Source: Synergistaceae bacterium
GTDB lineage: Bacteria; Synergistota; Synergistia; Synergistales; Synergistaceae
DNA length: 64,000 nt
Assembly (NCBI GenBank): GCA_031257775.1
Contig: JAIROA010000033.1
Coordinates: forward strand, 1,321 to 65,320
Direction of reading: 5' to 3'
In this document: positions 35,658 to 58,934 of the stretch, in pieces
Numbering within the stretch: position 1 is the first letter of the stretch
Layout: every line of letters starts with the position of its first letter
Position numbers and translations under genes: made by a program
The notes under the pieces: generated by a model
The model's database searches: none
The model's input: only the letters and a program-made list of their open reading frames with translations
Told to the model about the DNA's origin: nothing

Positions 35658-37231
35658 ACATCGTCAACCACCCAATTTTTGATTAGGTTCGCAAGTTCCT
35701 CCGGGTTGTTCATGGCGTAGTTCCTGAGCTGCTCCTCAAGGACGGAGAGCTCTCCCTGAGACGTCATGAGGTCAGGGTTCTCCAGCAGTTCACGCAGAGA
35801 CGGCGTCTCGTCGGCATCCACGCCGGCCTTCGCTCTCCGCAGCGCTTCAAGCTGCTTGCGCCTCCTGAACCATACCGCAAGGGCCCCGGCGACGGCGAGA
35901 AGGAGGATCACGAACGAGCTTACCCCCAGGATCAGGCGGCTCTGGCGCTCCCGGGCGATCCTGGCCGCTATGGCGTCCGCGACTGTCGTGTCGAACGCGG
36001 TCGCCATGACCGTGAGCCTGTCTCCCCTTCCTTCGTCAGTCCCTATCGCGGTTGCGACGGCGTTCCGCATGTCTTCCTGCTGCCGCTGGTTCATCTCGCC
36101 GTCGATAAAAACGGTCGCCGTGATCCTCTTGATCTTGCCTTGCGTCTCGATCTCCTGGGATTCCTGTGTCGAATTGTCGTAGTTATTTATTGTCTCGTTA
36201 AGGTTATAGTCGGCGGGAACGTTCGTCTGGCCCGTGTTGACGGTATACCCTGGGATGTTGGAGGTAGTTCCGGGCGGGCCGCCGTAAACGCCAGCCGGCC
36301 CGCTGTAGCTTTCGTCCCTTACCTGCGAGCTCTGAAGCGTTCCGTAGGATTTGTCCGGAAGGGGGGTCACGAGCCGCCTGTTCACCTGGCGCTTGTCGAA
36401 GTCAAGCTCCACGCGGACGACGGCTTTCACTTTTCCAGGGCCGTATATCTTCTTGAGCGAGTCCTCTATCTTTTTCTCGAACTCCTCCTCGTAATCCCTC
36501 TCGAACTGCCTTTGCCTCAGGACAAGCTTGTTGCCGCTCTGAACGGCAAGCGATCCATCCCTCAGATCTTCGAAATTTATCACACCGTCAGCGTCCACGA
36601 GCGTGACGTTCTCAGGCAAAAGCCCCTCGACGCTGTGCGAAACGAGGTGAATGACGGCCTGAGCCTGATCCTGGCCGAAATGAGAGCCTGATTTCAGTTT
36701 GAGCAGGATCGCTGCCGTGGACGGCTGATTTTGCTCCAGAAAAAGGCGCTGCTCCGGCACGACGATACTGACCCGGGCCGAACTCACGGCGTTCATCTCG
36801 CGGATCGTCCGAGATAGCTCCCCTTCGAGGGATCTGTAATACGCTACCTTTTTTTGAAAGTCATCCGCTCCCATCGGAAGCTTGTCCATGATTTCAAAGC
36901 CAACGATCCCGCCTGTCGGTATGCCCTTTGCCGCAAGCGCCATCCTGGCCTCGTACACGCTCTGTGTCGGGACCAGGATGGCGTTCGCCGCGGAGTCCGT
37001 CCTGTACGGTATGCTTTCGGCTTTCAGGTACGTGATGACGGCCTCCTGATCACGCGCCTCAAGCCCCGAGAATATAGGTTCGTAATTCTGGCGCCCCGCG
37101 GCGAAGGCCATCAGCAGCATCCCGCCAAGCACGGCTAATCCGGCGGAGGCAATGGACACCTGCTGCCACCTGGAAAGACCGCCCCAGAATGACTTGAAGC
37201 GTCCGGCAATTTCCATCAATTTATCTCGCAT
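35654..37231 (-). CDS. fliF: flagellar MS-ring protein FliF
   Basis: 525 aa with N- and C-terminal TM segments and YscJ/FliF family ring-building motifs. Confidence 0.95.
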   Translation of the reverse strand: MRDKLMEIAGRFKSFWGGLSRWQQVSIASAGLAVLGGMLLMAFAAGRQNYEPIFSGLEARDQEAVITYLKAESIPYRTDSAANAILVPTQSVYEARMALAAKGIPTGGIVGFEIMDKLPMGADDFQKKVAYYRSLEGELSRTIREMNAVSSARVSIVVPEQRLFLEQNQPSTAAILLKLKSGSHFGQDQAQAVIHLVSHSVEGLLPENVTLVDADGVINFEDLRDGSLAVQSGNKLVLRQRQFERDYEEEFEKKIEDSLKKIYGPGKVKAVVRVELDFDKRQVNRRLVTPLPDKSYGTLQSSQVRDESYSGPAGVYGGPPGTTSNIPGYTVNTGQTNVPADYNLNETINNYDNSTQESQEIETQGKIKRITATVFIDGEMNQRQQEDMRNAVATAIGTDEGRGDRLTVMATAFDTTVADAIAARIARERQSRLILGVSSFVILLLAVAGALAVWFRRRKQLEALRRAKAGVDADETPSLRELLENPDLMTSQGELSVLEEQLRNYAMNNPEELANLIKNWVVDDV

Positions 37232-37260
37232 TTTCCGGCCTCTTTAATTTTATTTAAAGG

Positions 37261-37572
37261 CTAAACCGACATGCGGCCGATTTGCTGATACGCGTCCAGC
37301 AACTTATCGCGGATCTGTACCATCAGGCGCAGGGCAAGCTCGGCTTTTTCCACAGCGATAGAAACCTCCGACACGTCTTCGACCTCTCCGAGCGACATTT
37401 TCTCTATCATTCTGTCCGACTCCCCCTGCAGGTCGTTTACCCTGGTGATGCTGGCCTTGAGAACTTCGGAAAATGGCCGGGCCGCTTTTCCCCCCTTATT
37501 AAGATTTTTTGGAAGAATAAGCCCCACGCTTTCCTCTAACTGAACAGGCTGAACTCGTATGGGATCTAGCAT
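37261..37572 (-). CDS. fliE: flagellar hook-basal body complex protein FliE
   Basis: 103 aa. C-terminal VSIAVEKAELALRLMVQIRDKLLDAYQQIGRMSV is typical of FliE. Confidence 0.9.
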   Translation of the reverse strand: MLDPIRVQPVQLEESVGLILPKNLNKGGKAARPFSEVLKASITRVNDLQGESDRMIEKMSLGEVEDVSEVSIAVEKAELALRLMVQIRDKLLDAYQQIGRMSV

Positions 37573-44900: not shown

Positions 44901-44961
44901 AAAAAATATCCCGCAAGCCGCCGCAAGCGCAGGCCCGGCGTTATCTCCGGGCACCTTGCGG
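44901..44961 (-). terminator. possible composite hairpin terminator at the 3' end of the 586-aa orphan gene
   Basis: CCGCAAG (44921-27) pairs with CTTGCGG (44955-61), and an inner GCCCGG (44933-38) pairs with CCGGGC (44947-52). A T6 tract lies on the minus sense at 44901-06, offset from the stem. The geometry is imperfect. Confidence 0.35.
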
Positions 44962-46701
44962 CTGCTTGCTGTCGCTCGTGACGCCAGATTTCTGCTTGAA
45001 GAAAGTCTTGAACCATTTCGACACCTCGCGCGGGAGTATCTTGTAGCCTTTGCGCTCCTTCGAAATCCACAGGAAATAGTCGTTGAAGAACGACTCCTGC
45101 AGCGCCCTGATCCCCTTGCCCTTGTTAGCTTTCAGTAACGCGTACGTGTCCTTGAGGGTTCTGTCTTCGTCGTTGTCCCACCTGAAAGCCGCCAGCGCGA
45201 AGCAAAAATCCTTGACATCCGACACCGCTGGAAATATCGGGATGATAAGGCTGTTGTCTTCCCAGTCATATACCCCCAGCCCCTGGCCAGGGACGAGTAT
45301 GACTCTCGGGATCCCGTACATCCTTATGCGGGAGGCCCTCAGCATGTCCGGATCGAGCGGGGTGAGATCCATCATTATCTCGCCGGCCCTCTGGGCGGAT
45401 ATGGGGACGCTTCTGTTCTGGCATAGCGGGGATTCGTCGAGCCTCGCCGTGTGGGCGGCAAGGAGCATGAACTCCCTTTTGTGGCTAATCCCCTCCCTGA
45501 GTTCCAGCTTCATGGCCGGGATGCCCTGCCCCTTGAATTTTTTCTTAGCCATCTCGCTCCTGGTCTTCCACCGCTCCGATTCATTCGTGACGTGGACGAT
45601 CAGCCCCGCGAGGAACTTTGTCTTGTCGTGCAGTGACAGCACGTTCTGTATTATCTTGAGGGACTGATCCAGTGCCTCGCCCTGCTCTTTTTTGTCCCGG
45701 GCCGGCGTTTCGGGCTGGTCATCGACCGAACCCTCGTAGCAGGGCGCTTCCGCCTCGGATTCTTCCCTTTCCTCGGTTTTTTGCTCCGCCGGCGCCGCTT
45801 TTTTTGCCGGAACGTCGTCTATCTCGGCAAACGGGTCAAAGGCCGCGAGCGGATCATGAGTCTCCGGCTCATCGCTTGCGGCAGGCGCCTCAGGCTGCGG
45901 CGCTTCAGGCTCGTTTGCCTTCGTGAGCTTCCTTTCGAGGCTGTCCATCAGATACCATAGCGTCCGCTCCGCTGTTTCGTAATTTTTGCAGCGTTCTTTT
46001 ATTATGCTTCTTGTCTTATTATCGGCCTCGCGAATCCGTTTCGTCCGCATGTCCGTCTCAATGGCATCATGCAGGCCCTCTTCGAGGTTCTTCAGAAGCT
46101 CGGACAGATCCTGTTTTTCTATGAGCCCCGTAGCGTTAAATAACGTATTCATGGCAAGGCGCCTTCTCGTCTGCGCCGTCCTCAGCTCGCCGTTAAAGCG
46201 TTTCAGCTTCTCATCGAGCGGCACTCCGCCGGACGGGCCGTCATAGCTCTTGCCGAATATGAGCGCGTAGTTCTCCTCCAGGTAGTCCGTCAGGCGGTTG
46301 TACTGGTACATATCGACTGCTGAGGGCTGCCCTATCTGCTCGCCAAACGACGCGTTTGGGACCGTGTACTCTGAGCATAGGTGGCCGAAATCTATAAATA
46401 GGCGCTCGGGTGGGGCGAACTCTAGCTTTTCTGGAGGGCCCGCGTCGATCTTCGCCTCCACGATAGCCCAGAGAACCTCCCAGAAATGGGCTGCTGCCTT
46501 CTGCCAGACGATGCGTGCCTTCTTGCGTGTCTCCGTGTCCGAAGCCCCGCGAAGCTTCGCCATGTTCCTGCCTAGAATCTGCATCTGCGAAGCCAGGGTG
46601 GCGACGTTTTTGTTTTCTTTCCAGTTAGCCGCTATCCAGCCGATGGCGTCGTCAATTTTTTTAAAATCGTCGGAATTTCCGCAAACCTCAGTAAGAGACA
46701 T
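44941..46701 (-). CDS. hypothetical protein, 586 aa, tripartite with acidic/Pro-rich linker
   Basis: Long ORF with a GGGGAG SD 7 nt upstream of the ATG. The antisense frames are Ser/Arg/Pro-rich shadows. No motif I can place. Confidence 0.7.
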   Translation of the reverse strand: MSLTEVCGNSDDFKKIDDAIGWIAANWKENKNVATLASQMQILGRNMAKLRGASDTETRKKARIVWQKAAAHFWEVLWAIVEAKIDAGPPEKLEFAPPERLFIDFGHLCSEYTVPNASFGEQIGQPSAVDMYQYNRLTDYLEENYALIFGKSYDGPSGGVPLDEKLKRFNGELRTAQTRRRLAMNTLFNATGLIEKQDLSELLKNLEEGLHDAIETDMRTKRIREADNKTRSIIKERCKNYETAERTLWYLMDSLERKLTKANEPEAPQPEAPAASDEPETHDPLAAFDPFAEIDDVPAKKAAPAEQKTEEREESEAEAPCYEGSVDDQPETPARDKKEQGEALDQSLKIIQNVLSLHDKTKFLAGLIVHVTNESERWKTRSEMAKKKFKGQGIPAMKLELREGISHKREFMLLAAHTARLDESPLCQNRSVPISAQRAGEIMMDLTPLDPDMLRASRIRMYGIPRVILVPGQGLGVYDWEDNSLIIPIFPAVSDVKDFCFALAAFRWDNDEDRTLKDTYALLKANKGKGIRALQESFFNDYFLWISKERKGYKILPREVSKWFKTFFKQKSGVTSDSKQPQGARR

Positions 46702-46713
46702 CCTGCCACTCCC

Positions 46714-47910
46714 CTAGAAAAAAGAACGGATGCAGGCGTGCCAGTCCTTCACATCCATTCCTCCGATCACCGAGTTTATGGTATACTGCGGGTCTTTGTC
46801 GCCGCCCAGAGAACAGGCCTCAAGGCACGTTTCCCAATCATCCCCGCTCAAGGTCACAATCCTGTCATTCTCGCCCGGAAGGCGCGTGTCCGGTATTATG
46901 CCGAATAAAACGTCGCCTGAATCGCTCACGAACCTCGTGACCTTAAAACGGCGGTCTCCAGCCCCTGTCATCTCGAATCGTTCGCGCTTCTTCATCTGGC
47001 GCGCCTCGGCAAGCTTCATGGAATCAGTGTCAAGCTCTATCTCAATCCTCGCCAGTATCGGCCACAGGCGGAGATATGCTATCAGCCTCGCTATAGCTGG
47101 ACGCCCGATTCCCGTCATGGCGTTTATGCTGTCCTCGGAACGGTACGACGCGCCAGGAAGGTATTTCCAGAAGGCCTCTCCGAAAGTATGCTCGCCGCCA
47201 AGCGACCAGTCGCTGAAGCCAAACAGAAGCCCTTTTGAAATGGGCAGAAGAAACTCGCTCCAGCGCTCCGGAGTGGCATTGATTATTTCCTTCGCGACAG
47301 GGGCATTCCTCATAGTGAACGGCAGGCACCCCTCTTTCAAGAGGAAACCGGGCCACGGCGCTTCATCGCTCTTATTGTGCTCCAGGATGGCCGCTTCGGT
47401 CTCCGTGGGGATGAAACACGGGCGCATGCACCACTTGCCCTTTTTGGGGGTGTACGCGTACCAGAGCGTGTCTTTCTTATTTTCGGCTATCAGAGTCAGG
47501 TCGGCCTCGCTCCTGGCCGCTTTCGTCGTGTGCAGGATATCGCCAAGGAGCTGGACGCCGCGCCATTCAAGGGATTTCAGCGACAGGGCCTCCTCTCCTT
47601 TAACGATGAGCGAGGCAATGCTTTCCGCTATACTGTCCATGGGGTATTCTTTTATGGATTTTCCAGCTTTGATCTTGAGGCTGCGCTCAGCGCCTTCGGC
47701 CCAAGACAGATGAACGTACTTTTTTTTGTTCGTGTTCGTGTTGAATATGCCAAGCCTCGGAAGGCTGTCGCTTCTTACCAGGAGAAGCGTAAGGTCGTCA
47801 TCCATAACTTCCTCAGCGATTACCGATAGATCAGCGCCGGTTGCCAAAAAAATCACCTCAATGCCATTTAGTAACTTAGCAATACATCTCTGCAAAACGC
47901 AGGGGATCAT
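46714..47910 (-). CDS. hypothetical protein, about 360-398 aa
   Basis: Long ORF 12 nt upstream of the 586-aa gene. The start is ambiguous among ATG 47910 (no SD), TTG 47847 (after GAGGTG) and ATG 47805 (after GAGGAA). No recognisable domain. Confidence 0.65.
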   Translation of the reverse strand: MIPCVLQRCIAKLLNGIEVIFLATGADLSVIAEEVMDDDLTLLLVRSDSLPRLGIFNTNTNKKKYVHLSWAEGAERSLKIKAGKSIKEYPMDSIAESIASLIVKGEEALSLKSLEWRGVQLLGDILHTTKAARSEADLTLIAENKKDTLWYAYTPKKGKWCMRPCFIPTETEAAILEHNKSDEAPWPGFLLKEGCLPFTMRNAPVAKEIINATPERWSEFLLPISKGLLFGFSDWSLGGEHTFGEAFWKYLPGASYRSEDSINAMTGIGRPAIARLIAYLRLWPILARIEIELDTDSMKLAEARQMKKRERFEMTGAGDRRFKVTRFVSDSGDVLFGIIPDTRLPGENDRIVTLSGDDWETCLEACSLGGDKDPQYTINSVIGGMDVKDWHACIRSFF

Positions 47911-47950: not shown

Positions 47951-47988
47951 AAAATCAACGAAAGAGCCGAACCCGTAGGGCCCGGCTC
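47951..47988 (-). terminator. intrinsic terminator downstream of rpsU
   Basis: Minus-sense sequence is GAGCCGGGCCC-UAC-GGGUUCGGCUC, an 11-bp stem with two G-U pairs (47964-47988). It is followed by UUUCGUUGAUUUUU. Confidence 0.6.
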
Positions 47989-48024
47989 CTGAATTATCAC
48001 AAAAAAACCGGCGAAGCTTCGGCC

Positions 48025-48210
48025 CTAATCCACTCTCCTGTGCTTATTGCGAACGGAGGCCGCCTTCTTGCGTTTTTTAATTTCGCTAGGTTTTTCATAA
48101 TGCTCGTGTTTACGGGCCTCTCTTAGCACTCCTACCTTCCGGAGTTCCCGTTTGAATCGCTTCAGAGCATCCTCTATCGTCTCGTTTTCCCGTCGAACAA
48201 CGCTGGTCAT
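48025..48210 (-). CDS. rpsU: 30S ribosomal protein S21
   Basis: MTSVVRRENETIEDALKRFKRELRKVGVLREARKHEHYEKPSEIKKRKKAASVRNKHRRVD. Start at ATG 48210 after GGGAGGGGGG. The longer track ORF, which extends to 48372, is an upstream extension. Confidence 0.9.
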   Translation of the reverse strand: MTSVVRRENETIEDALKRFKRELRKVGVLREARKHEHYEKPSEIKKRKKAASVRNKHRRVD

Positions 48211-48332: not shown

Positions 48333-49352
48333 TTAACCCAGCTTTTGATCCCGCACAATAGCAGAGGCCCACACCCTTACCACGGGAGACTTATGCTCTG
48401 TCATTATTTTATTTATAGCCGGCATAAACCACATGGGTATTTTCTCCTTTTTCATCAGCCGCAAAAGCGGAACGAGTATGGATTCATCATCCTTTTTGAT
48501 GAGCCCGAGCAAATCAACCGACTCCGGCAGGCTCTGGTCAAGGGGCCATCCGTTCAGCGCGGCGGCAATCACGGAATTAACAGGGTGAGAGAGAAACGGC
48601 ACGAAGAATTCCTTCGGGACGTTCTGCCTCCTGAACCATTTTAGCACCATCATGGAATCGGCCGGGGAAAAACCGCCCGAATGAGAGGCCAGCGCCCTGG
48701 CAAGGTCTTTTGACATTGACGGCGCGGAAAAGAGCGAAAGAAGGCTCTCCAGTATCTCAGAGGAGGGCGCATGCCTCGTAAAGTGATCCACGACGGCCCT
48801 CCTCATGTCGTTAGTGGCGTCGCGGGAGGATATGCTTCGCAGCGCCAGCATCACGACGCCAGGGTGCCTGCTTCTCAGCCTCCGCAGAATTGCCTCGATC
48901 CGGCTGCTGGCCTTCATCTCGCCCCGGTGGGAGAAAATACCCTGCATCTCAAACTCCGCCCTCGATATGACGCTGCCAAGGAAACGCACCCTTGCCGGCG
49001 GCAGATCGTAGTCAAACTGCTCTTTCTCGTGACTTTTCTTCACTGCCGCGCCGAACAGGTTCTTCCAAAAGGCCTTAAAAACCGACTCCTTAGCCTTGCC
49101 CGTCGCGGGCTGCGCCTGACGGCGCTCTTCCTGCCCGGCCTGCCGGTTTCTGGGCCGCCTGGATGGCGCCCGCGACACAGTCTCCTTAAGGGTCATGTAA
49201 GCCTCGGTTATTTCCGAAAACTTCCTTGCCCCGTCAGGACCCGCAATGTCGGGGTGATACGTGCGGGCAAGATGCCTGAACGCCGATTTGATCTCGTCCC
49301 AGCTTGCGTCGGCACTAAGGCCTAGAATTTTGAAGTTCGCGTTTGAGTTCAT
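48333..49352 (-). CDS. J-domain protein with HEAT/ARM-like C-terminal repeats (non-canonical DnaJ-like)
   Basis: J domain NFKILGLSADASWDEIKSAFRHLARTYHPDIAG with the HPD motif. It has no Gly/Phe region or zinc-finger CxxCxGxG repeats. The C-terminal helical repeats include a HEAT-like HKSPVVRVWASAIV. Start at ATG 49352 overlaps the upstream stop as ATGA. Confidence 0.8.
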   Translation of the reverse strand: MNSNANFKILGLSADASWDEIKSAFRHLARTYHPDIAGPDGARKFSEITEAYMTLKETVSRAPSRRPRNRQAGQEERRQAQPATGKAKESVFKAFWKNLFGAAVKKSHEKEQFDYDLPPARVRFLGSVISRAEFEMQGIFSHRGEMKASSRIEAILRRLRSRHPGVVMLALRSISSRDATNDMRRAVVDHFTRHAPSSEILESLLSLFSAPSMSKDLARALASHSGGFSPADSMMVLKWFRRQNVPKEFFVPFLSHPVNSVIAAALNGWPLDQSLPESVDLLGLIKKDDESILVPLLRLMKKEKIPMWFMPAINKIMTEHKSPVVRVWASAIVRDQKLG

Positions 49353-50926
49353 GGCGAGACCACCTGCTCTATCTCCGCGATCATCCTGTCTATCACTTCG
49401 AGAGCCTGCCACTGCAGCGCGCTGTCCTCATTCCGCAGCGAACGGGCCTCCGTGACGATTATTCCAAGGCGCTGCTGAAAATTATCGGGAAACGACATCG
49501 AAAGGCGCGCCAGGCGGTCTTCCCTCACGCGCAGCTCTGAGGCAATGTCGCAGGGCATGATGCCTGACGCGTCCGTCTCGAGCGATATCGTCTTTCTGCT
49601 CGTTTTTCTCTTTCTCTTTACCTCGACATGGAGAAGGCCTCCGCCGTCAACCCTGAAAAAAACCTCCACTATCTCGCCGTCCTTCACGTTGTCTACGTAG
49701 AGCGTCTGCAATACCCTGTTGAGGCTTTTGACTCTCCCCTCTCCCTGCACGATCGTCACTTCCAGGCTGCCGTTGCCATACGCGGTAAAGCTTCTCTTTG
49801 CCTCGGCGGGAAGAGGGATTCCCCTGCCGAGTATCTGAACTACCCCGCCGTCAACGTTCATCACGCCGAGGCTGCGGCTCAGGACATCAATGAGAAGCCG
49901 TTCTCTCCCCTGGTTCGCGTAAAGCGCGGTGCCAGTGACTACGGCGTCCTCTGGGGACGAACGGAGGCGCTCGGGATCCTTTACTTTAGCCGCCAGGGTA
50001 TCGCGAAGGAGCGGTATGCGCCCGCTGCCCCCCACGACCAGCAGTTTCTGCGGATTATGCCTTCTCCACATGCGGGAAACCATGCCTGCCACCTCGTCGA
50101 TCACCGGGCGGATGAGCATTTCAAACTCCTGCCGTGAAATTTCGATGGACCGTTCCCGCGACGATAAGCCGGCGGGAATCCTCCATGTCACGCTCCCTGT
50201 GCTGCTCAAGGCTATTTTCACTCCCTCGGCTTCCCTCATCATGAGGGAGCCTCTGGGATCCTCAGCCCTGGAGAACGGTATGCCTGCCCTCCTGCACATC
50301 CGGTCGGCAAGAAGCCTGTCCAGATCATAGCCCCCTATGTCCTTCCTGCCTTTGCTCTCTATGACCTGGAATATCCCGCGCTCGCCCTCGACTAAAGAGA
50401 GGTCGAGCGTCCCGGCGCCAAAATCTATGATGAGGAATCTGCCATCCATGCCTATAGAGAGGGCTGCCGCGGTCGGCTCGTTCACTATCCTGATTTTCTC
50501 GAACCCGGCGCTCTGCGCGGCCCTAGCCAGCGCGCCGCGCTCCGGGAAGCTGAAATGTGCCGGGACCGCCAGTACGCACGACGAGACGAAAGCCCCCAGA
50601 TAGGCCTCAGCGTCCTCCCGCAAGAGGCATATCATAGGAATCAGAAGCTCTTCGGGCGTGTAGGTTCTCCCGCCCATGCGGGCAACCCAGTCCGTGCCAA
50701 GATGACGCTTCATATCCCACCACGCGACCTGCGGATCGGTAAGGGCGATCTTCGCGGCGTCCTCGCCCGCAATCAGGCCGTCGCTCGACACGGCGACCAT
50801 AGATGAGGTTCTAGTGTTCCCCCATCTGTTGCGTATGAGCGAGACTCCCTTTCCGGGCATATCGACCGCAAGCTGGGCGTACCTCGTCCCGAGGTCGACT
50901 CCTACGACAATTTCTTCCACCAACAC
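49349..50926 (-). CDS. non-canonical Hsp70-family ATPase (DnaK paralog, 525 aa)
   Basis: Actin-like ATPase motifs VGVDLGTRYAQLAV, IVNEPTAAALS, IIDFGAGTLDLSLV and LLVVGGSGRIPLLRD. SBD-like IDVLSRSLGV ... VTIVQGEG. The helical lid is short. Start is GTG/TTG at 50920-50926 after AAGGAG. Confidence 0.85.
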   Translation of the reverse strand: MLVEEIVVGVDLGTRYAQLAVDMPGKGVSLIRNRWGNTRTSSMVAVSSDGLIAGEDAAKIALTDPQVAWWDMKRHLGTDWVARMGGRTYTPEELLIPMICLLREDAEAYLGAFVSSCVLAVPAHFSFPERGALARAAQSAGFEKIRIVNEPTAAALSIGMDGRFLIIDFGAGTLDLSLVEGERGIFQVIESKGRKDIGGYDLDRLLADRMCRRAGIPFSRAEDPRGSLMMREAEGVKIALSSTGSVTWRIPAGLSSRERSIEISRQEFEMLIRPVIDEVAGMVSRMWRRHNPQKLLVVGGSGRIPLLRDTLAAKVKDPERLRSSPEDAVVTGTALYANQGRERLLIDVLSRSLGVMNVDGGVVQILGRGIPLPAEAKRSFTAYGNGSLEVTIVQGEGRVKSLNRVLQTLYVDNVKDGEIVEVFFRVDGGGLLHVEVKRKRKTSRKTISLETDASGIMPCDIASELRVREDRLARLSMSFPDNFQQRLGIIVTEARSLRNEDSALQWQALEVIDRMIAEIEQVVSP

Positions 50927-50951
50927 AGAACTCCTTCCGCAAAGACGCGCC

Positions 50952-52355
50952 TTAGCCGCAATAAATCAGCTCTTCGCTAAAATCCTCTTTGGAAATGCCT
51001 TCGCCGAAAAGTATACCGCCTATTTCGGATTTAGGAGACACGGAAATTTCCGTTCCCTCAAAACCCTGCCCCCGCGACAGGGCGTAAACCTTTAAATAAT
51101 GGCGGGTCCACCCCGACACCACGGATACGCCCGGCGTATGGCCAGGCCTGGAAGATTCGCAGAATATTTCCTCGCGCGAGCCCACCTTGCCTGACGCGTA
51201 TCGCGACAGCAGGCGCCCGGCAAGCTCCGCCGCGCGCCGGACGCGTTCTTTTATAATCGCAGCGTCCACCCTGCCGCTCATCTTAGCGGCGTCAGTCCCC
51301 TCGCGCGGCGAAAACGGGAAAACGTGAATTTTCCCGAAGCCGGACTCCTCCAAAAAGCCAAGGCTCCGCGCAAAGGCGCTTTCCGTCTCGCCGGGGAAAC
51401 CTACTATAAGGTCAGTGGAAATATGGACGTCCCCGCCAAGCGCTGAACGGACTCTGCCTAACATCCGCCTGAATGCGTCCGTGTCGTAGCCGCGCCTCAT
51501 TCTGGCTAACGTCTCGTCGTCGCCGCTTTGAAGCGGCAGATGCAGATGGGGGCAAAAAACCCCCGACCGCGAGAGCGCGTCAAGCAGCTCTCCCGTCACC
51601 GCGAATGGCTCTAGCGAGCCCATCCTGAGACGCATGAGGCCCTTTATGCCCGATAGGCGCTCGATGAGGCCCCCGAGACCCCCGTATTCGCTTTTGTACG
51701 ATCCGATATGAACTCCTGTCAGCACGGCCTCGCGGCACCCTGACTCCACGATCCCAGACACCTCGCGGATTATGTCCGCCGCCGGGCGCGAAACCTCGGC
51801 GCCCCGGACACTCGGCACGATACAGTAGCTGCAACGCCTACCGCAGCCGTCCTGCACCTTGACGAAAGCCCTGTCGCGAAGGCGCGGGCGATCCAGCGAA
51901 AGCTCGTCCCACGCGGCATTCTCCCCTAGGCTCATGTCTCGTCTCGATATAAGCGCCGGGCCGAGATCCCGCTCTGAGGCGAACCACTCGTAAAGGGCGT
52001 CCGGCAGCGCGCTCTTCATCCGGTTACCTATCAGGATATCGGCGCCAAGCTCCGAGGCCTCCTCTGCCGGCAGATGCTGGACAGAGCAACCGCAAGCGAC
52101 AATGACGGCGGACTTGTTCTGCCTGCGCGCGCGGCGGATGAATTTTCTGGCCTTCGCGTCAGCGGCGGATGTCACGGAGCAAGTGAGTATTATGACGATG
52201 TCGGTGCCCCCGCGCGCCTCACGGCAAAACACCGCCCCTCTTTCCTCCAGCATGGAGGCAAGGGCTTCCGCCTCAGACAGATTCGTCCTGCATCCAAGAA
52301 CGAGAATGGAGAATGTTTTTCCGGCTAAACGCAAGAGAGGCGAAACCAGCCGCAT
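50952..52355 (-). CDS. mtaB: tRNA methylthiotransferase, MtaB-like (radical SAM MiaB family)
   Basis: N-terminal LGCRTNLSEAE, radical SAM VQDGCGRRCSYCIV, and a TRAM-like C-terminus. Position after rsmE is as in the Bacillus dnaK operon. Confidence 0.85.
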   Translation of the reverse strand: MRLVSPLLRLAGKTFSILVLGCRTNLSEAEALASMLEERGAVFCREARGGTDIVIILTCSVTSAADAKARKFIRRARRQNKSAVIVACGCSVQHLPAEEASELGADILIGNRMKSALPDALYEWFASERDLGPALISRRDMSLGENAAWDELSLDRPRLRDRAFVKVQDGCGRRCSYCIVPSVRGAEVSRPAADIIREVSGIVESGCREAVLTGVHIGSYKSEYGGLGGLIERLSGIKGLMRLRMGSLEPFAVTGELLDALSRSGVFCPHLHLPLQSGDDETLARMRRGYDTDAFRRMLGRVRSALGGDVHISTDLIVGFPGETESAFARSLGFLEESGFGKIHVFPFSPREGTDAAKMSGRVDAAIIKERVRRAAELAGRLLSRYASGKVGSREEIFCESSRPGHTPGVSVVSGWTRHYLKVYALSRGQGFEGTEISVSPKSEIGGILFGEGISKEDFSEELIYCG

Positions 52356-53077
52356 CCCACTATCGCCGCCGTCGAGGCGCGCAGGATACCGTGCCCAAGG
52401 CTTACTGGCACGAAATTTTTCTGCATGAGGGCATCCGTCTCGCCGTCAGTCCAGTCGCCCTCAGGCCCGACGGCAAACGCGGCTTCCTCCCGCACGGAGG
52501 CCTGGGAGATCGGCATGGCCTCTGGCGAGAGGATCGCGGCGTAGCGGGTCTTTGGGATTTCCTGCCAGTCAAGACCGCAAAGAGCGACTGGCTGATATAT
52601 GGCGGCGGGACAGGCGAAACCGGATATTTTAGAGCCCTCGTCAAGAATTTTCTGCCACCGGGACATCTTTTTCGGCATCTCGCCCTCGTTGATCCTTGGC
52701 ACCGACCTTTCGCAGATTATAGGCCTGACGTCCCTTACGCCAAGCTCTGACGCCGCCCGCAGGACGGAGTCGAACTGTTCCGCTTTTAAGAGGCCAATCA
52801 AAAGCGTGAGGCTTATGCCGGGCAATTCCGGTTCTTCGGGGCCGACCTCGCGGAGATAGCTTTTCCCGCCGATCTTTTCGAGGCGCATTTTGATTTTACT
52901 CCCGCCGCCGTCTGGCAAAAGCCCCTCCGCCACAGCCCCTTCATAAGAGCGCAGAGATTTCGTAAGATGGCGATCCTGGGCACCGTCGAGCTTCCATAGG
53001 CCGTCACCGGCCTTAAGGCAGCGCTCAAGCCTTACTTTGGGCAGAGACACCCCACCAATCCTCCACCTGCAGCTCAT
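52325..53077 (-). CDS. rsmE: 16S rRNA (uracil1498-N3)-methyltransferase RsmE
   Basis: SPOUT-type C-terminus (AFAVGPEGDWTDGE ... SLGHGILRASTAAI) and an N-terminal PUA-like part. The start is uncertain (a GTG/TTG around 53044-53050 is possible). Confidence 0.8.
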   Translation of the reverse strand: MSCRWRIGGVSLPKVRLERCLKAGDGLWKLDGAQDRHLTKSLRSYEGAVAEGLLPDGGGSKIKMRLEKIGGKSYLREVGPEEPELPGISLTLLIGLLKAEQFDSVLRAASELGVRDVRPIICERSVPRINEGEMPKKMSRWQKILDEGSKISGFACPAAIYQPVALCGLDWQEIPKTRYAAILSPEAMPISQASVREEAAFAVGPEGDWTDGETDALMQKNFVPVSLGHGILRASTAAIVGCGWFRLSCV

Positions 53078-53924
53078 CGACCGCTTCCAGCCCGCTGCCG
53101 GAGAGCGCTTCGAGAAATCCGTCCCTCTCCCTCTCTATCATTCCGGAAAAAATAGCCACAGCCCCCGGCTTCAGGACTTTCCTGACGTCAGGGAGCATCT
53201 GGACGAGAGGGTCGGCCAGAATATTTGCCAGCACCAGGTCGAAGCCGTCCCCGACATTGGTGAGAAGATCCCCGACCTCAAGCGTGACTCGGGCCATATC
53301 GACTTCGTTCAGCTCCAGATTGTTTCTGACCTCGCTTATCACCGCCGGGTCGAGGTCACGGGACACTGCCCGCGACGCGCCTAATTTCAGCGCCGCGATG
53401 GTCAGTATGCCGGATCCGGTCCCGACATCTATGACGTCTCCGACGGGCTTGCCGCTGCGCGAGCGATTAACGAAGTGCCGCTCAAGCAGCCGAAGTATGA
53501 CCTGAGTGCTTTCGTGATAGCCAGTCCCGAAAGCGCTGGCAGGGTTTATGTAAAGCGGTATCCTCCCGTCAGGCACCTTGTCCTTGTGCCACGGTGCCAG
53601 CACGACCAAGCCATCGCCCAGCTCCAGGGGCGGGAAGGCTTCCTCGCTCTGAACTGACCAGGGCTGATTTTCTATCTTGCCTATATCCTCCATCCTTATG
53701 TCAGGCCAGGGCTCGAGCGCGCCAAGCAGCCGGCTCCTCCAGAAAGAGATTTCCTCGTCGCCGCGATAATATATCCGCATCCTAACCCCGTCCGGCAGTT
53801 CCTGAACCTCAGTGCCGATGCTGCCCGATATTTCGGCAGCCGAGTACAAGATTTCCTCGCACTCCCGCGAGGGGATGCTCCCGCGATCCAGAACCGTTAT
53901 ATACCACCACCAGCTTCCCATCAA
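53025..53924 (-). CDS. prmA: ribosomal protein L11 methyltransferase PrmA
   Basis: INPASAFGTGYHESTQ and the SAM motif DVGTGSGILTIAALKLGA. Confidence 0.9.
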   Translation of the reverse strand: MMGSWWWYITVLDRGSIPSRECEEILYSAAEISGSIGTEVQELPDGVRMRIYYRGDEEISFWRSRLLGALEPWPDIRMEDIGKIENQPWSVQSEEAFPPLELGDGLVVLAPWHKDKVPDGRIPLYINPASAFGTGYHESTQVILRLLERHFVNRSRSGKPVGDVIDVGTGSGILTIAALKLGASRAVSRDLDPAVISEVRNNLELNEVDMARVTLEVGDLLTNVGDGFDLVLANILADPLVQMLPDVRKVLKPGAVAIFSGMIERERDGFLEALSGSGLEAVDELQVEDWWGVSAQSKA

Positions 53925-53956: not shown

Positions 53957-53997
53957 CAAAACATGGAGAGAAGGCGATCGTCCTGCCTTCTCTCCAT
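53957..53997 (-). terminator. strong hairpin terminator after dnaJ
   Basis: Perfect 13-bp stem, ATGGAGAGAAGGC (53963-75) pairing with GCCTTCTCTCCAT (53985-97), and a 9-nt loop. The minus-sense stem is followed by GUUUUG. Confidence 0.7.
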
Positions 53998-54020: not shown

Positions 54021-55172
54021 CTACCCCGCGAATTTATCGCGTAATTTGCCAAAGAGCCCTTTATCCTCAGAAACTTCGACCTTCATCTCCGCCGCAAGCT
54101 CGGTCAGAAGCTTTTTCGCGGTATCGGAGAGGTTTTTAGGCACGCTGACGCGGACGTGAATATGCAGATCTCCCCTGCCCGAGCCCCTGAGAAGCGGCAT
54201 CCCGCGGTTCTTTATGCGAAGCACGGAGCCAGGCTGAGTCCCGGCCGGGACATCCAGCTTCTCCACTCCGTCAAACGTCGGTATGGATACGGTCGCGCCG
54301 AGAGCGGCCTGGGGAATGGCTATGTCGATCTTCGTGTGGAGGTCGGCCCCGTCCCGCTGGAAGCGGCTGTCCGGCGTCACTTCCAGCACGATGAACAGAT
54401 CACCGGGAGGCCCGCCGTTCCTGCCGCCCTCGCCTTCCCCGCTTATCCGCAGCCTTGTCCCCGTATCGACGCCAGGCGGTATCCTGACATCGAGCTTCCG
54501 GTTGCGCCGCGTGCGCCCATGCCCTCTGCACTCCTTGCACGGAGTCTTTATGATCTTCCCCTCGCCTTTGCACTGAACGCACGGGACTACTTGAACCATC
54601 TGCCCGAAGGGCGTGCTGGTGACCCGTTCCACCTGCCCGCTTCCTCCGCATGCCGTGCATGTCTCGGCGCTCGAGCCTGGCTCCGCTCCGCTGCCGGAAC
54701 AGTGGGGGCAGTTTTCCTCCCTCGGAACCTCGACCTCGCGGTTAATGCCCTTATAAGCGGTCTCAAGGGTGATCCGCATGGACATCTCAAGGTCTGAGCC
54801 CTTGCGGGGCGCGTTGGGGTTAGCCCTGCTGCGCCCCATGCCCCCGAAAAAGCTGTCGAAAATGTCCCCGAAAATGTCCCCGCCCATGCCGCCGAACGGA
54901 TCCCTGCCGCCGAAACCGCCTCCGGGCGGCGCGTCCCCGACAAAGCCGAACTGGTCGTACTGCGTCTTCTTCTGGGGATCACTCAGCACGTCATTCGCTT
55001 CGTTGATCTCCTTGAATTTCTTCTCGGCGTCCGCGTTGCCCTGATTGGCATCGGGATGGTACTTCCGAGCTAGCTTCCTGTAGGCCTTTTTGATTTCGTC
55101 CGGCGAGGCGTTCCGAGGCACCCCCAGGATTTCGTAATAATCTTTCTTGCCTGGCCCTGCCACAGCACTCAC
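54021..55172 (-). CDS. dnaJ: molecular chaperone DnaJ
   Basis: J domain (DYYEILGV ... KYHPD), Gly/Phe-rich region, and four CxxCxGxG zinc-finger repeats. Confidence 0.95.
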
Positions 55173-55187
55173 CTCTTCGTTCTGATT

Positions 55188-57029
55188 TTAATTGCTCCCG
55201 GACTCGGTGAAATCGGCATCGACAGTAGTGCTGTCCGAGTCTCCGGCCTCCGCGTTCGCGTTGCCGGCATCCGGCGCGGAAGCCTGCTGCGCCTGCGCGT
55301 AAAGCTTCTCCGCGATGGGATGCATGGAGGTGGAAAGCTCGTCCTTGGCCGCGTTGATCCTGGATATGTCATCGGATGACATGGCTTCGCGCAGTGCCGA
55401 TATTTTGGCCTCCACGGCGCCGCGCTCGCTCTCGCTTACCTTGTCCCCCAGATCCTTAAGCGATTTCTCCGCATTATATACGAAGGAGTCGGCTTCGTTG
55501 CGGGCCTCTATAAGCTCCTTCTTGCGCTTGTCCTCGTCCTCGTGACTCTCCGCGTCTTTGCGCATCTTCTCTATGTCCGAATCGGTCAGGCGAGACGACT
55601 GGATCGTGATATGCTGCGCCTTGCCCGTGCCCTTATCTTTGGCGGTCACGTTCACTATGCCGTTAGCGTCAATGTCGAACGTAACCTCTATCTGAGGTAT
55701 GCCCCTCGGTGCCGGCGGAATGCCGTCGAGATTGAACTTGCCGAGCGTCACGTTGTCCGAGGCCATAGCCCTTTCGCCCTGAAGGACGTGAACCTCTACC
55801 TGCGGCTGGTTGTCCGACGCGGTCGTGAAGACCTGGCTCCGCGAGGCCGGTATGGCCGTGTTGCGGTCGATTATCTTAGTGAACACGCCGCCCATGGTCT
55901 CCAGCCCGAGCGAGAGGGGCGTGACGTCCACGAGCACTATGTCCTTGTGTTCGCCTGACAGCACGGCACCCTGGAGGGCAGCGCCTATCGCGACGCATTC
56001 GTCCGGGTTGATTCCCTTTGTCGGCTCCTTGCCGAGCAGATCCTTTACCTTCTTTTGAACCATCGGCATACGCGTGGAGCCGCCGACAAGGAGTATCTTG
56101 TCGACCTCGGAGGGCTTAAGGCCTGCGTCCGAGAGCGCGGACTGCGTCGGCGCCACTACGCGGTCCAGGAGATCCCTCGTCAGATCCTCGAACCGCGCCC
56201 TCGTGAGCGTCAGCTCAAGGTGCCTCGGCCCGTTCTGGTCGGCGGTGATGAAGGGAAGGGATATGGTAGTCTCCGCCATGGACGATAGCTCGACTTTAGC
56301 CTTCTCCGCCGCCTCGCGGAGGCGCTGAACCGCCATGCGGTCCTTCCTCAGATCTACCCCGTCGCTCTTTTTGAACTCGTCCGCCATCCAGTCGACGATC
56401 CGGTTGTCCCAGTCGTCCCCGCCGAGCATGTTGTCGCCTGACGTGGCCAGCACCTCGAACACGCCGTCGCCAACATCGAGGATCGATACGTCGAACGTAC
56501 CGCCGCCAAGGTCGAAAACGAGGATCTTGTGCTCGCCCTCCTTGTCCGCCCCGTAAGCGAGGCAGGCGGCGGTAGGCTCGTTTATGACCCTGAGGACCTC
56601 AAGCCCCGCTATCGTCCCCGCATCCTTCGTGGCCTGACGCTGTGCGTCCGTAAAGTACGCCGGGCAGGTGATCACGGCGTGAGAAACCTGCATCCCGAGG
56701 TATTCCTCAGCATCCCTTTTCAGCTTCTGAAGGATCATCGCCGAAATCTCCTGCGGGCTGTACCCCTTTTCGTCGATCTTGACCTTATGATCCGTGCCCA
56801 TCTTTCTCTTTATGGATATCACGGTCCTGTCGGTGTTCACTATCGCCTGTCGTTTCGCAAGCTGCCCGACAAGGCGCTCGCCCTCTTTCGTGAAAGCCAC
56901 CACGGACGGAGTCGTGCGGTTCCCCTCAGCGTTGGGGATGACCGTTATATTGTCGCCCTCCTTCACCGCGACACAGCTATTCGTCGTGCCGAGGTCGATT
57001 CCTATTACCTTTCCTGTTGTTTTAGCCAT
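55188..57029 (-). CDS. dnaK: molecular chaperone DnaK
   Basis: Canonical Hsp70: [32 protein letters not shown]. Confidence 0.97.
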
Positions 57030-57106
57030 TAAAATTACCTTCCTTCTAAACTGAAATTTTTTGATATATTTTTTTAAAAAAACGCCCGGTCAAGGCTTTA
57101 TGCCGG

Positions 57107-57730
57107 TCATTCGGGCTTTTTCCGCCCTACCTTAACCTGAGCGGCGCGCAGCACCTTGTCGCCAAGCCTGTAGCCTCTGTGAAGCTCCTCCAGTATCCTG
57201 CCGTCGTCGCTTTCCTCGACGTCGTCCGCCATAAGGGCTTCGTGCTGCGACGGATCGAACTGGCAATCAGTGGCGATCACCTCTAGCCCAAGGTTCTGAA
57301 GGGCCGCGAAAAACTGCCGCTGAACCATCGACACTCCCTTGTAAAGCTGGGAATCCTTATCCGTCACTGCCCGCAATGTCCTGTCCAGGTTGTCCAGCAC
57401 TGGAATGAGGGCGCTCACAGCGCCTTCCGCGGCTAAAGCCCTGTCCCTGGAGCGGTCCCGCTCTATCCTCGTCCTGTAATTGTAGAAATCAGCCTTCGCC
57501 CTCGCAGCCTCGTCCCTGTAGCTCTCCGATTCGGCTCTCGCCTCTTCGAGAAGCTGCCTGAGCTCGTCAATCTCGGGCCCGCGGCATGACGCTTCCTCAG
57601 ACCCGCTTGCGGATTCCTTGTTTATATCATTTGCCCCGTCATAGCCTGGCGCGTCATTTTTTTCCAGCTCCGGCGCCGCTTCGGCATGAGCGTCGCGGCA
57701 GGCCTTCGGAGCGTTCTTTCCAGCCGGCAT
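57107..57730 (-). CDS. grpE: nucleotide exchange factor GrpE
   Basis: Coiled-coil section followed by a GrpE beta-domain (HEALM ... GYRLGDKVLRAAQVKV). Confidence 0.9.
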   Translation of the reverse strand: MPAGKNAPKACRDAHAEAAPELEKNDAPGYDGANDINKESASGSEEASCRGPEIDELRQLLEEARAESESYRDEAARAKADFYNYRTRIERDRSRDRALAAEGAVSALIPVLDNLDRTLRAVTDKDSQLYKGVSMVQRQFFAALQNLGLEVIATDCQFDPSQHEALMADDVEESDDGRILEELHRGYRLGDKVLRAAQVKVGRKKPE

Positions 57731-57732
57731 TC

Positions 57733-58761
57733 CTATCCATCTCCTTCGTTTTCGTCCGCTTTGCCGACAAGATCCTTCAAAACCCTGTCCAGAACGGATA
57801 TCACTTTTTCGTAGTTCATCCTCTTCGGGCCGATCACCCCGAGCGTCGTTTTCTGCCCGTCTGAACTCGACGACGAGAGGACGACCGCGCAGTTTTTCAT
57901 CTCAGGCAGGTCGTTTTCCTCGCCGATGATCACGCCGATGCCGTCAGTCGTGTCGCACGTTCTCAGAAGATCGACAAGCCCGTCCTCCTGCTCAAGGATG
58001 GAAAATAGCGCCCGGAAGCGGCCTATATCCTGAAAATCAGGGATATTGAAGAGGTTCGCGAGGGAACCTGTGAAAAGCGTCGTATGTTCGCCCGCGAGCA
58101 GCCTGTCCAGATCGATGAGGGCCTTCTGGCATGATTCGGCGTACCGGCCAAGCTCCTGCATAATATAATTCTGAAGCGCGGCGCGGACCTCGCCCCACTC
58201 GTGCCCCGACATCGTGTTTATCCTCCTCGCCAGATCCTGGAGCGTGTCCTGGGAGAGGTCATAGGGCATATTGACTATTTTGTGGTGGACGATCCCGCCC
58301 TCAAGCACGACGAGCAGCAGCACGTTCGACGTGTCGACCCTTATGAAGTCTATCTTGCTGAGACGGGCCTGCCTGAGCTGGGTCACTGCCGCAACTCCGA
58401 CGTAGTGCGAGAGCTGCGTCAGAAGCTCCGAAGCGGAGGTAAGCGCGCCCTCGATGCCGTTCCTGTGGGCCTTCAGGTTATCCACCCACTCGCTCGATAC
58501 CTGCTCCCTCGTCCGCCTGCGCTCGAGAACCGTGTCGACGAAAAGGCGGTACGCCCGCGTCGTCGGAATCCGCCCGGAAGAGGTATGAGGCTGCATGAGG
58601 TATCCCATCTCCTCGAGGTCGGCCATTTCGTTCCTTATGGTGGCCGCGCTCCGTCCGATCAGATAGCGTTTCGAAAGCGTACGCGAGCCGACATGCTCCC
58701 CGCTTTCGATAAACTCGTACACCACTGAGAGCAATACTTCAAGCTGCCGCTCCGTCAGCAT
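57733..58761 (-). CDS. hrcA: heat-inducible transcription repressor HrcA
   Basis: MLTERQLEVLLSVVYEFIESGEHVGSRTLSKRY matches the HrcA N-terminal wHTH. I start at ATG 58761, 6 nt after AAAGGGGGG. The longest ORF would run through the CIRCE operator. Confidence 0.9.
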   Translation of the reverse strand: MLTERQLEVLLSVVYEFIESGEHVGSRTLSKRYLIGRSAATIRNEMADLEEMGYLMQPHTSSGRIPTTRAYRLFVDTVLERRRTREQVSSEWVDNLKAHRNGIEGALTSASELLTQLSHYVGVAAVTQLRQARLSKIDFIRVDTSNVLLLVVLEGGIVHHKIVNMPYDLSQDTLQDLARRINTMSGHEWGEVRAALQNYIMQELGRYAESCQKALIDLDRLLAGEHTTLFTGSLANLFNIPDFQDIGRFRALFSILEQEDGLVDLLRTCDTTDGIGVIIGEENDLPEMKNCAVVLSSSSSDGQKTTLGVIGPKRMNYEKVISVLDRVLKDLVGKADENEGDG

Positions 58762-58796
58762 CCTCATCCCCCCTTTCCGGTGATTTTTAGAACCTA

Positions 58797-58823
58797 TTAG
58801 CACTCATGACTATCGAGTGCTAA
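58797..58823 (-). promoter_or_regulatory. CIRCE operator (HrcA binding site), perfect inverted repeat
   Basis: TTAGCACTC-ATGACTATC-GAGTGCTAA matches the CIRCE consensus TTAGCACTC-N9-GAGTGCTAA exactly. It lies just upstream of hrcA. Confidence 0.95.
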
Positions 58824-58842: not shown

Positions 58843-58871
58843 AGATTATCAGGGCATTGGCTAATTGTCAA
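58843..58871 (-). promoter_or_regulatory. candidate sigma-70 promoter of the hrcA-grpE-dnaK-dnaJ operon
   Basis: Minus sense reads TTGACA (58871-58866), a 17-nt spacer ending in TGa, then TAATCT (58848-58843). CIRCE follows about 20 nt downstream, which is the classical arrangement. Confidence 0.5.
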
Positions 58872-58934
58872 GACAAGTCAAATTATTTTTTGACGCCAAT
58901 CTGAAATAAAAAGCTTGAGGGGCATAACGCGGCA

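Follow-up and report, generated by a model that had tools for sequence, protein, structure and literature searches.

The 64,000-nucleotide (nt) stretch of DNA analyzed here, referred to as the window (Synergistaceae bacterium, assembly GCA_031257775.1, contig JAIROA010000033.1, positions 1,321 to 65,320), encodes on its minus strand a divergent Hsp70 of 525 amino acids (aa), termed Hsp70L, and, directly downstream, a 339-aa J-domain protein with a predicted alpha-solenoid tail. We consider it likely that these two proteins form a dedicated two-component chaperone machine, consisting of Hsp70L and a class C J protein, and that the pair is an old, vertically inherited trait of Synergistota located in the distal part of the dnaK superoperon.

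Reviews distinguish three types of prokaryotic Hsp70, namely, DnaK, HscA, and HscC (PMC8215388), and the remaining DnaK derivatives were described as unexplored “dark matter” in a 2026 review (PMC13580251). Literature searches found no paper describing the Hsp70L/J-solenoid pair, and the names given to its members in sequence databases do not go beyond “Hsp70 family protein” and “J domain-containing protein.”

Sequence and predicted structure of Hsp70L

The Hsp70L gene (positions 49349 to 50926, minus strand) lies right after mtaB, as an initial annotation of this sequence had stated for a divergent 525-aa Hsp70. Assignment of its product to the Hsp70 superfamily is supported by Pfam (HSP70, PF00012; 221 bits, E value of 3e-65, cut-off of 20.6), alignment with DnaK, an AlphaFold2 (AF2) model, and Foldseek. 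Scores against the DnaK and HscA models of NCBIfam were ∼200 bits, compared with cut-offs of 650 to 1000, i.e., 197 bits for DnaK (TIGR02350 and NF001413; cut-offs of 822 and 648, respectively) and 200.7 bits for HscA (TIGR01991; cut-off of 708.55). The top sequence matches in the PDB were DnaKs, with 188 bits and residues 7 to 465 aligned. The AF2 model (predicted local distance difference test [pLDDT] score of 83.7) comprises a nucleotide-binding domain (NBD; approximately aa 1 to 340), a flexible linker (aa 341 to 349, with the motif RLLIDV), the beta-sandwich of the substrate-binding domain (SBD-beta; aa 350 to 448), a disordered segment (aa 449 to 459), and a C-terminal lid of three helices (aa 461 to 523). 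Full-length DnaK and BiP structures were its best Foldseek matches (E values of 1e-42 to 1e-35).

Hsp70L was aligned with DnaK, HscA, and HscC of strain MG1655, and residues were compared across eight family members, using E. coli DnaK numbering. The catalytic and phosphate-binding residues D8, T11, K70, E171, D194, T199, and D201 are unchanged in every family member or almost every one. Also kept in the family are the proline switch P143 and R151, the J-responsive residues R167, N170, and T173, and the hydrophobic linker LL[IL]DV, including L391 and D393. Exceptions are limited to single members (D194E in P0165 and R167L in P0182). The initial annotation held that all ATPase motifs are intact, which is correct for the catalytic residues but not for their immediate surroundings, as the adjoining substitutions T12R, N13Y, and G197A are specific to the family, as is E217Q. 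Given the general Hsp70 mechanism (PMC8215388), the retained catalytic, linker, and J-binding residues lead us to infer that Hsp70L is an active, J-stimulated ATPase.

Features associated with nucleotide exchange and the lid differ from those of DnaK. Each of the two salt bridges across the nucleotide cleft (K55-E267 and R56-E264) has lost one partner, K55 being replaced by A, S, or L and E264 by R, S, A, or L, and the GrpE-signature loop (residues 289 to 295) is shortened. The short lid reported in the initial annotation was borne out, since the alignment with E. coli DnaK stops after lid helix C, without helices D and E and the disordered tail, and the AF2 model ends in three helices. In the alignment, Hsp70L lacks the N-terminal extension that is a feature of HscA, and length ranges from 515 to 553 aa across the family.

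The J-solenoid protein

The J protein gene (positions 48333 to 49352, minus strand) starts at an ATG (49352) that is supported by its homologues. The only Pfam match is DnaJ (PF00226; residues 7 to 62, 52.6 bits), and no G/F region, zinc finger, or DnaJ_C domain was matched by Pfam, in agreement with the original description of a J protein that has the HPD motif and lacks both the G/F region and the zinc finger. The score against the full DnaJ model TIGR02349 was 57.6 bits (cut-off of 377) and that against the HscB model TIGR00714 was 19.5 bits (cut-off of 46.75). The protein consists of the J domain (aa 1 to 62) with HPD at residues 33 to 35 (nt 49248 to 49256), a linker (aa 63 to 118), a long helix (aa 119 to 159), and the solenoid (aa 164 to 338). 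In an alignment of 25 J homologues, H33, P34, and D35 are invariant, and the helix II/III residues K22, F25, R26, R30, F45, and Y52 show no or almost no variation. With an HPD-containing J domain and a C terminus unrelated to DnaJ, the domain content is that of a class C (type III) J protein.

The AF2 model of the J protein has an overall pLDDT of 82.4, increasing to >90 in the paired helices of the solenoid. The J domain spans residues 1 to 60 in this model, and the linker is predicted to be disordered at residues 63 to 90 and 101 to 114, on either side of a short helix, and is followed by a helix of 40 residues (aa 119 to 159). Foldseek matched the solenoid to alphaRep, importin-alpha, PP2A-A, and TOG structures, with probabilities of ∼1 but E values of 0.03 to 0.2. 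Two motifs conserved among the 25 homologues, RLRSRHPxV and SPAVRVWASAIVRD, resemble HEAT-repeat signatures, and deeper relatives of the protein give weak or faint matches to HEAT_2. The conserved C-terminal motif, VRVWASAIVRDQ, is part of the solenoid, and the C terminus has no hydrophobic anchor. Because the Foldseek E values are weak and the HEAT models stay below threshold, “HEAT/ARM-like” is supported for this tail as a fold and not as family membership. The ∼250 aa of HEAT/ARM-like repeats initially proposed are therefore reduced to a predicted alpha-solenoid of ∼175 aa, the rest being a linker of ∼55 aa and the long helix, and the label is not upheld at the sequence level.

A basic character is shared by the whole family: the J protein of the window has an isoelectric point (pI) of 10.2, the pI is 9.1 to 11.5 in all 25 family members, and the net charge of the solenoid is +7 to +14 in most of them. 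In the Aminiphilus group, the charge is located in the linker rather than in the solenoid.

Phylogenetic position, distribution, and selection

When the family profile was compared with 1.84 billion representative proteins, 13 family representatives scored between 833 and 481 bits, followed by a drop to ≤400 bits. In a distance-based neighbor-joining (NJ) tree with 100 bootstraps, Synergistota Hsp70L sequences formed a clade in 100/100 replicates and grouped with deep mtaB-linked relatives (P0226 and P0244) in 81/100. Grouping with HscC and HscC-like sequences or with a spirochaete clade was never recovered (0/100), and DnaK and HscA sequences were placed elsewhere in the tree. Hsp70L is 24 to 27% identical to DnaK, HscA, and HscC (27% to the DnaK of the same genome and 25% to HscC). 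By model score and tree position, Hsp70L is neither DnaK, HscA, nor HscC, as the initial annotation had anticipated in calling it noncanonical, and its family is placed as a separate Hsp70 clade.

Database searches with the J protein gave 98 relatives at E values of ≤0.001, of which ∼93 are full length, and every named full-length relative belongs to Synergistota. Named homologues come from Thermanaerovibrio, Aminithiophilus, Aminivibrio, Aminomonas, Aminiphilus, and Fretibacterium. Relatives of Hsp70L include Thermanaerovibrio, Aminithiophilus, and Aminivibrio. A survey with one genome scanned per species gave 41 loci with a full-length J relative, again all from Synergistota. Of the 38 loci where the upstream neighbor of the J gene could be assessed, 36 have Hsp70L directly in this position, and all 33 loci in which the side upstream of Hsp70L is readable have mtaB there, down to identities of 40 to 45% for Hsp70L and 27% for the J protein. 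An overlap of the two genes by 4 nt (NTGA) or 1 nt persists in 30 of 37 loci, some of them with as little as 43% (Hsp70L) and 29% (J protein) identity, and members of a Fretibacterium-like group have gaps of 32 to 135 nt instead. The pair is followed by rpsU in ∼30 loci and, as in Bacillus subtilis, rpsU is followed by yqeY in 19. No yqeY was found in the entire 64-kb window or in the examined parts of L001 to L004, suggesting from gene content that yqeY is lost or has moved in this subclade.

Acetomicrobium (L091) and Thermosynergistes or Acetomicrobium sp. strain S15 (L086/L087) also carry the pair. In deeper relatives, comprising these thermophilic lineages and two further lineages (L084 and L088) that are the deepest linked to mtaB, a gene for a BpsA_C protein (PF01861; bis-aminopropyl-spermidine-synthase-like, ∼350 aa) lies between mtaB and Hsp70L (L084:4939-5991, L087:2151-3203, L088:3814-4863, and L091:6906-7961). 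The J partner of Thermosynergistes (L086:3258-4023 and L087:4756-5521) is 140 aa long and consists of a J domain and one helix; its gene is followed by one for a PemK-family toxin, and the Thermosynergistes Hsp70L (P0228) is on a very long branch. Two metagenome-assembled genomes (MAGs) of termite gut Synergistaceae encode distant J-solenoid proteins (22 to 28% identity; L033:4907-5965 and L054:9959-11023), with a GNAT gene upstream in L033 and a PP-loop ATPase gene upstream in L054, where rpsU still adjoins.

Ratios of nonsynonymous to synonymous substitution rates (dN/dS), calculated against the closest relatives (L001 and L002) and approximate because dS is ∼1, were 0.07 to 0.08 for Hsp70L and 0.15 to 0.20 for the J protein, compared with 0.16 to 0.21 for mtaB and 0.05 to 0.08 for dnaJ. 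Both genes of the pair are intact and, by these ratios, are under purifying selection, and between close relatives the pair exceeds housekeeping neighbors such as mtaB and prmA in conservation. The GC content of the pair is equal to that of its flanks, and composition gives no indication of an island.

Conserved synteny, the gene overlap, flank-like GC content, and selection together argue that the pair is an old, vertically inherited, and selectively maintained phylum trait. Firmicutes keep the ancestral order of the dnaK superoperon without the pair. The gene order of the window matches the initial placement of the pair in an interval resembling yqeV(mtaB)...rpsU-yqeY of B. subtilis, and the pair is, on gene order, an addition relative to Firmicutes, yet no recent insertion. 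The suggestion that it was inserted as a recent or mobile acquisition is accordingly not sustained, given the mtaB-Hsp70L-J order in 33/33 loci, the overlap in 30/37, and the unremarkable GC content.

Genomic context and predicted transcription units

Open reading frames (ORFs) and family models agree with the initial annotation in placing a canonical heat shock operon, hrcA (57733 to 58803), grpE (57107 to 57730), dnaK (55188 to 57029), and dnaJ (54021 to 55172), upstream of the pair and prmA, rsmE, mtaB, and rpsU around it, all on the minus strand. Ahead of hrcA, a TTGACA...GATAAT promoter-like site (58860 to 58890) is closely followed by a perfect CIRCE element (TTAGCACTC-N9-GAGTGCTAA, 58797 to 58823), a match with 0 mismatches where chance would give 0.03; this is the signature of classic HrcA control of the operon. 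Just 3' of dnaJ is a strong hairpin followed by UUUU (53963 to 53997, minus strand; −26.7 kcal/mol, z = −5.9), with none of 200 shuffled sequences equally stable. It is a probable terminator or attenuator that would separate hrcA-grpE-dnaK-dnaJ from prmA...rpsU.

The distal unit, in which synteny is conserved, opens with prmA (L11 methyltransferase; 53025 to 53924) and rsmE (16S rRNA m3U1498 methyltransferase; 52325 to 53077), followed by mtaB (tRNA ms2t6A enzyme; 50952 to 52355), the constant upstream neighbor of the pair. The mtaB product scored 343.8 bits against TIGR01579 (cut-off of 357) and 328 bits against the MiaB/RimO subfamily model TIGR00089 (cut-off of 251). Only 25 nt separate the mtaB stop (50952) from the start of Hsp70L, so that there is no room for a promoter or terminator, and this gap holds a Shine-Dalgarno sequence, GGAAGGAG (50931 to 50938), 5 nt ahead of the GTG start. 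At the Hsp70L/J junction, the ATGA overlap that had been noted (49349 to 49352, minus strand) was read directly from the sequence (...GTC TCG CCA TGA ACT...; CCATGAAC at 49354 to 49347), with the Hsp70L stop TGA at 49351 to 49349 and the J start ATG at 49352 to 49350, an arrangement that supports the initial reading of translational coupling between the two genes.

The gene for ribosomal protein S21, rpsU (48025 to 48210; TIGR00030, 61.9 bits), begins 122 nt 3' of the J gene, and the spacer between them folds no better than shuffled sequences (z = −0.1). Beyond rpsU, a terminator-like hairpin of 13 pairs, 8 of them GC (47962 to 47990, minus strand), presumably marks the end of the transcription unit. 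We infer from this layout that the pair is expressed together with prmA-rsmE-mtaB and rpsU, possibly with read-through from the heat shock unit. An Rfam search of the whole window matched no RNA element.

Two genes of the minus strand, encoding proteins of 398 aa (46714 to 47910) and 586 aa (44941 to 46701; with an acidic, low-complexity center), follow the hairpin and are referred to as orphans. Neither protein has relatives in Pfam, NCBIfam, PADLOC, PHROG, or PDB sequences, and both are real genes as judged from dN/dS ratios of 0.06 to 0.09 within a Synergistaceae subclade. They occur after rpsU(-yqeY) in 10 loci only, all from close relatives, with an acyl-CoA ligase gene on their other side.

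A flagellar cluster, fliE-fliF-fliG-fliH-fliI (32407 to 37572, minus strand), lies ∼11 kb from the pair. It contains another ORF of 525 aa (35654 to 37231), which was rejected as a second Hsp70L copy because it is FliF, followed by FliG, and the equal length is a coincidence. A defense system origin of the pair was also rejected, as Hsp70L matched only PDC-M61B in PADLOC, at 18 bits, and neither the J protein nor the orphans had any match there, and so was a phage origin, as PHROGs gave the generic Hsp70 and J families alone.

Proposed mechanism and alternative explanations

We propose that the HPD-containing J domain docks on Hsp70L and would thereby trigger ATP hydrolysis. With both cleft salt bridges (K55 and E264) gone and a shortened GrpE-signature loop, Hsp70L probably exchanges nucleotide fast and independently of GrpE, as in HscA and HscC. 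Changes at D148, K155, D326, N415, D481, and E217, the variable arch (M404 and A429 vary and the latch residues are not conserved across the family), and the three-helix lid suggest that allostery is altered and the range of clients narrow. The J protein would use its basic solenoid tail as a targeting or client-binding module; J-HEAT_2 partners also accompany other divergent Hsp70s. Its target may be polyanionic, with the ribosome or RNA favored by the polycationic tail and the translation-related operon partners (PrmA, RsmE, MtaB, S21, and YqeY). This is the most likely target but the weakest step of the proposal, and as gene order may simply be inherited, we regard a ribosomal or RNA target as possible but rather improbable.

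Several observations weigh against the proposed machine or its details. Positions important for DnaK allostery are changed in Hsp70L (D148 is replaced by F, K155 by A, and both N415 and D481 by G, and D326 is deleted), and for this reason Hsp70L might not act as a classical J-stimulated clamp. The predicted alpha-solenoid of the J tail depends on AF2 and on weak Foldseek E values, and the Pfam models HEAT and HEAT_2 pick out no more than 4 and 3, respectively, of the 25 J family members, below threshold. The Thermosynergistes J partner has no solenoid, the J-solenoid genes of L033 and L054 have no adjacent Hsp70L, and neither the Fretibacterium-like group nor the deepest relatives have rpsU adjoining the pair. 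The link to translation genes may be mere inherited superoperon order. In addition, NJ is a simple method of tree construction and dS is close to saturation.

The initial annotation had considered the pair an insertion into a conserved backbone and the adjacent orphan operon (44941 to 47910) its client or partner. The orphans are on the same strand, co-occur with the pair in the 10 close-relative loci, and are under purifying selection, but rpsU and the terminator-like hairpin lie in between, as does rpsU-yqeY in relatives. Moreover, the pair occurs without them: no orphans were found past rpsU-yqeY in L009 and L019 or in the examined regions of L022 to L028, L049, and the Acetomicrobium and Thermosynergistes loci, and in L019 the acyl-CoA ligase gene is found ∼0.8 kb past rpsU-yqeY with no orphan homologues detected between. 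Synteny thus indicates independent distribution and largely refutes the client proposal, to which we give almost no credence. The orphans are better described, from their synteny, as a separate, subclade-restricted unit outside the chaperone system, and it is they, not the pair, that behave like a variable insert, flanked by rpsU(-yqeY) and the acyl-CoA ligase gene. Scarcely more probable is an HscC/DjlB-DjlC-type system acting at the membrane, like E. coli HscC. Hsp70L shares with HscC the absence of the segment equivalent to DnaK residues 76 to 101, a short GrpE signature, an apparently matching helix-B deletion, the loss of 4 residues from the PAPRG loop, and a dedicated adjacent J protein. 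However, the 76-to-101 deletion does not discriminate, as it is also present in the DnaK of the same genome. The trees (0/100 bootstraps with HscC or HscC-like sequences) and 25% identity argue against this assignment, as may a length of 525 rather than 550 to 580 aa, Hsp70L lacks the defining 4- to 8-aa insertion in loop L1,2 of SBD-beta, and its J partner has an N-terminal J domain and a soluble, basic solenoid without a tail anchor.

The changed allosteric residues (D148F, K155A, N415G, D481G, and deletion of D326), the unconserved arch and latch, and the location in the same superoperon as dnaK could also be reconciled with Hsp70L being no client-folding chaperone but a protein that regulates canonical DnaK or assists it in the manner of a nucleotide exchange factor, similar to Hsp110 or Ssz1, with the J protein as an adaptor. 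We consider this unlikely, because the catalytic residues, the linker, R167, N170, T173, and an HPD-bearing partner are retained under strong purifying selection, which favors a working J-stimulated ATPase cycle. The remaining possibility is a subcase of the dedicated machine, in which the pair is associated with the ribosome or RNA as a bacterial analogue of the ribosome-associated complex (RAC; Ssz1-Zuo1), where the basic solenoid would dock on the ribosome or its assembly intermediates and thereby bring in the atypical Hsp70. Consistent with this are the apparent cotranscription with prmA, rsmE, and mtaB and then rpsU-yqeY, a J protein pI of 9 to 11.5 throughout the family, the J-solenoid gene of L054 that adjoins rpsU even without Hsp70L, and the resemblance to RAC of an atypical Hsp70 with a short C-terminal region together with a J protein; Foldseek also returned the RAC core structure, 6sr6, but at rank 50. 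Conversely, the gene order may reflect phylogenetic inertia, the linkage to rpsU is lost in several lineages, and an analogous spirochaete Hsp70/J-HEAT pair lies in a flagellar rather than a ribosomal cluster. Such a ribosome- or RNA-associated role is doubtful, though better placed than the other alternatives, and its fullest form, a bacterial RAC counterpart serving ribosome assembly or nascent chains and fixed in Synergistota within a translation-maintenance operon, prmA-rsmE-mtaB-...-rpsU-yqeY, is slightly more doubtful still.

The pair neatly illustrates a further Hsp70 class, found in every sampled Synergistota lineage together with a coevolving J protein of new architecture. It offers a natural experiment in the rewiring of Hsp70 allostery and of dependence on nucleotide exchange factors (NEFs) and is a possible molecular marker for Synergistota. 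Acetomicrobium, Thermanaerovibrio, and Aminiphilus provide cultured hosts for a search for clients. A ribosomal target, if true, would change the view that bacteria have no ribosome-tethered Hsp70 system.

Comparison with known chaperone systems

With the canonical DnaK-DnaJ/CbpA-GrpE system (54021 to 57730 in the window), the pair shares the Hsp70 fold, the catalytic machinery, the logic of HPD stimulation, and the superoperon. It differs in that Hsp70L has no helices D and E and no tail, its NEF-related and allosteric residues are changed, and its J partner lacks the G/F region, zinc finger, and C-terminal domain of DnaJ/CbpA. The Hsp70L pair, like HscA-HscB, combines a specialized Hsp70 with its own class C J protein and is probably GrpE independent. 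In contrast to HscA, Hsp70L has neither the isc context (there are no isc genes nearby) nor the N-terminal extension and lies outside the HscA clade.

HscC-DjlB/DjlC is similar in that a divergent, shortened Hsp70 is found beside its own J protein and presumably serves a dedicated client. Like HscC, Hsp70L has lost the GrpE signature and the salt bridges, implying independence from NEFs, and both have the 76-to-101 NBD deletion. A helix-B gap of 6 alignment columns in Hsp70L lies where HscC has one of 12 and may correspond to it (HscC is defined here as being 550 to 580 aa long and lacking nine residues of lid helix B). Among the hallmarks of HscC is an insertion of 4 to 8 aa in loop L1,2 of SBD-beta (PMC8215388); HscC has NRQG at this position, whereas Hsp70L is gapped there like DnaK. 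The J partners DjlB and DjlC have a tail anchor in the membrane, while the partner of Hsp70L is soluble, basic, and solenoid tailed. HscC is sporadic in distribution, whereas Hsp70L is phylum-wide, located within the dnaK superoperon, and in a separate clade, with a lid that ends after helix C.

A spirochaete pair in a flagellar superoperon has a comparable organization, in which the gene of an Hsp70 paralogue overlaps or nearly abuts the next one, encoding a J protein whose tail matches HEAT_2 weakly. The spirochaete Hsp70 is DnaK-like (∼41% identical to DnaK; 553 to 594 aa) and grouped with Hsp70L in 0/100 bootstraps. At the loci found (L090:6001-8182, L092:6001-8312, and L093:6001-8329), the Hsp70 is 535 to 567 aa and the J protein 195 to 213 aa, the gene order is flhF-flhG-x-fliA-fapA-x-x-Hsp70-J-cheA, and named matches are from Spirochaeta africana, S. 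dissipatitropha, and Spirochaetaceae MAGs. No paper on this spirochaete Hsp70/J-HEAT_2 pair was found; in Borrelia burgdorferi, a published study places bb0264 last in the flgB superoperon, and its product (BB0264, “dnaK-1”) may be an Hsp70 of this type and may serve as a lead. Finally, the RAC of Ssz1 and Zuotin resembles the pair in combining an atypical Hsp70 with a basic J protein, a likeness that would be one of functional analogy. Sequence kinship is limited to the Hsp70 and J domains, and, unlike Ssz1, Hsp70L keeps the catalytic residues.

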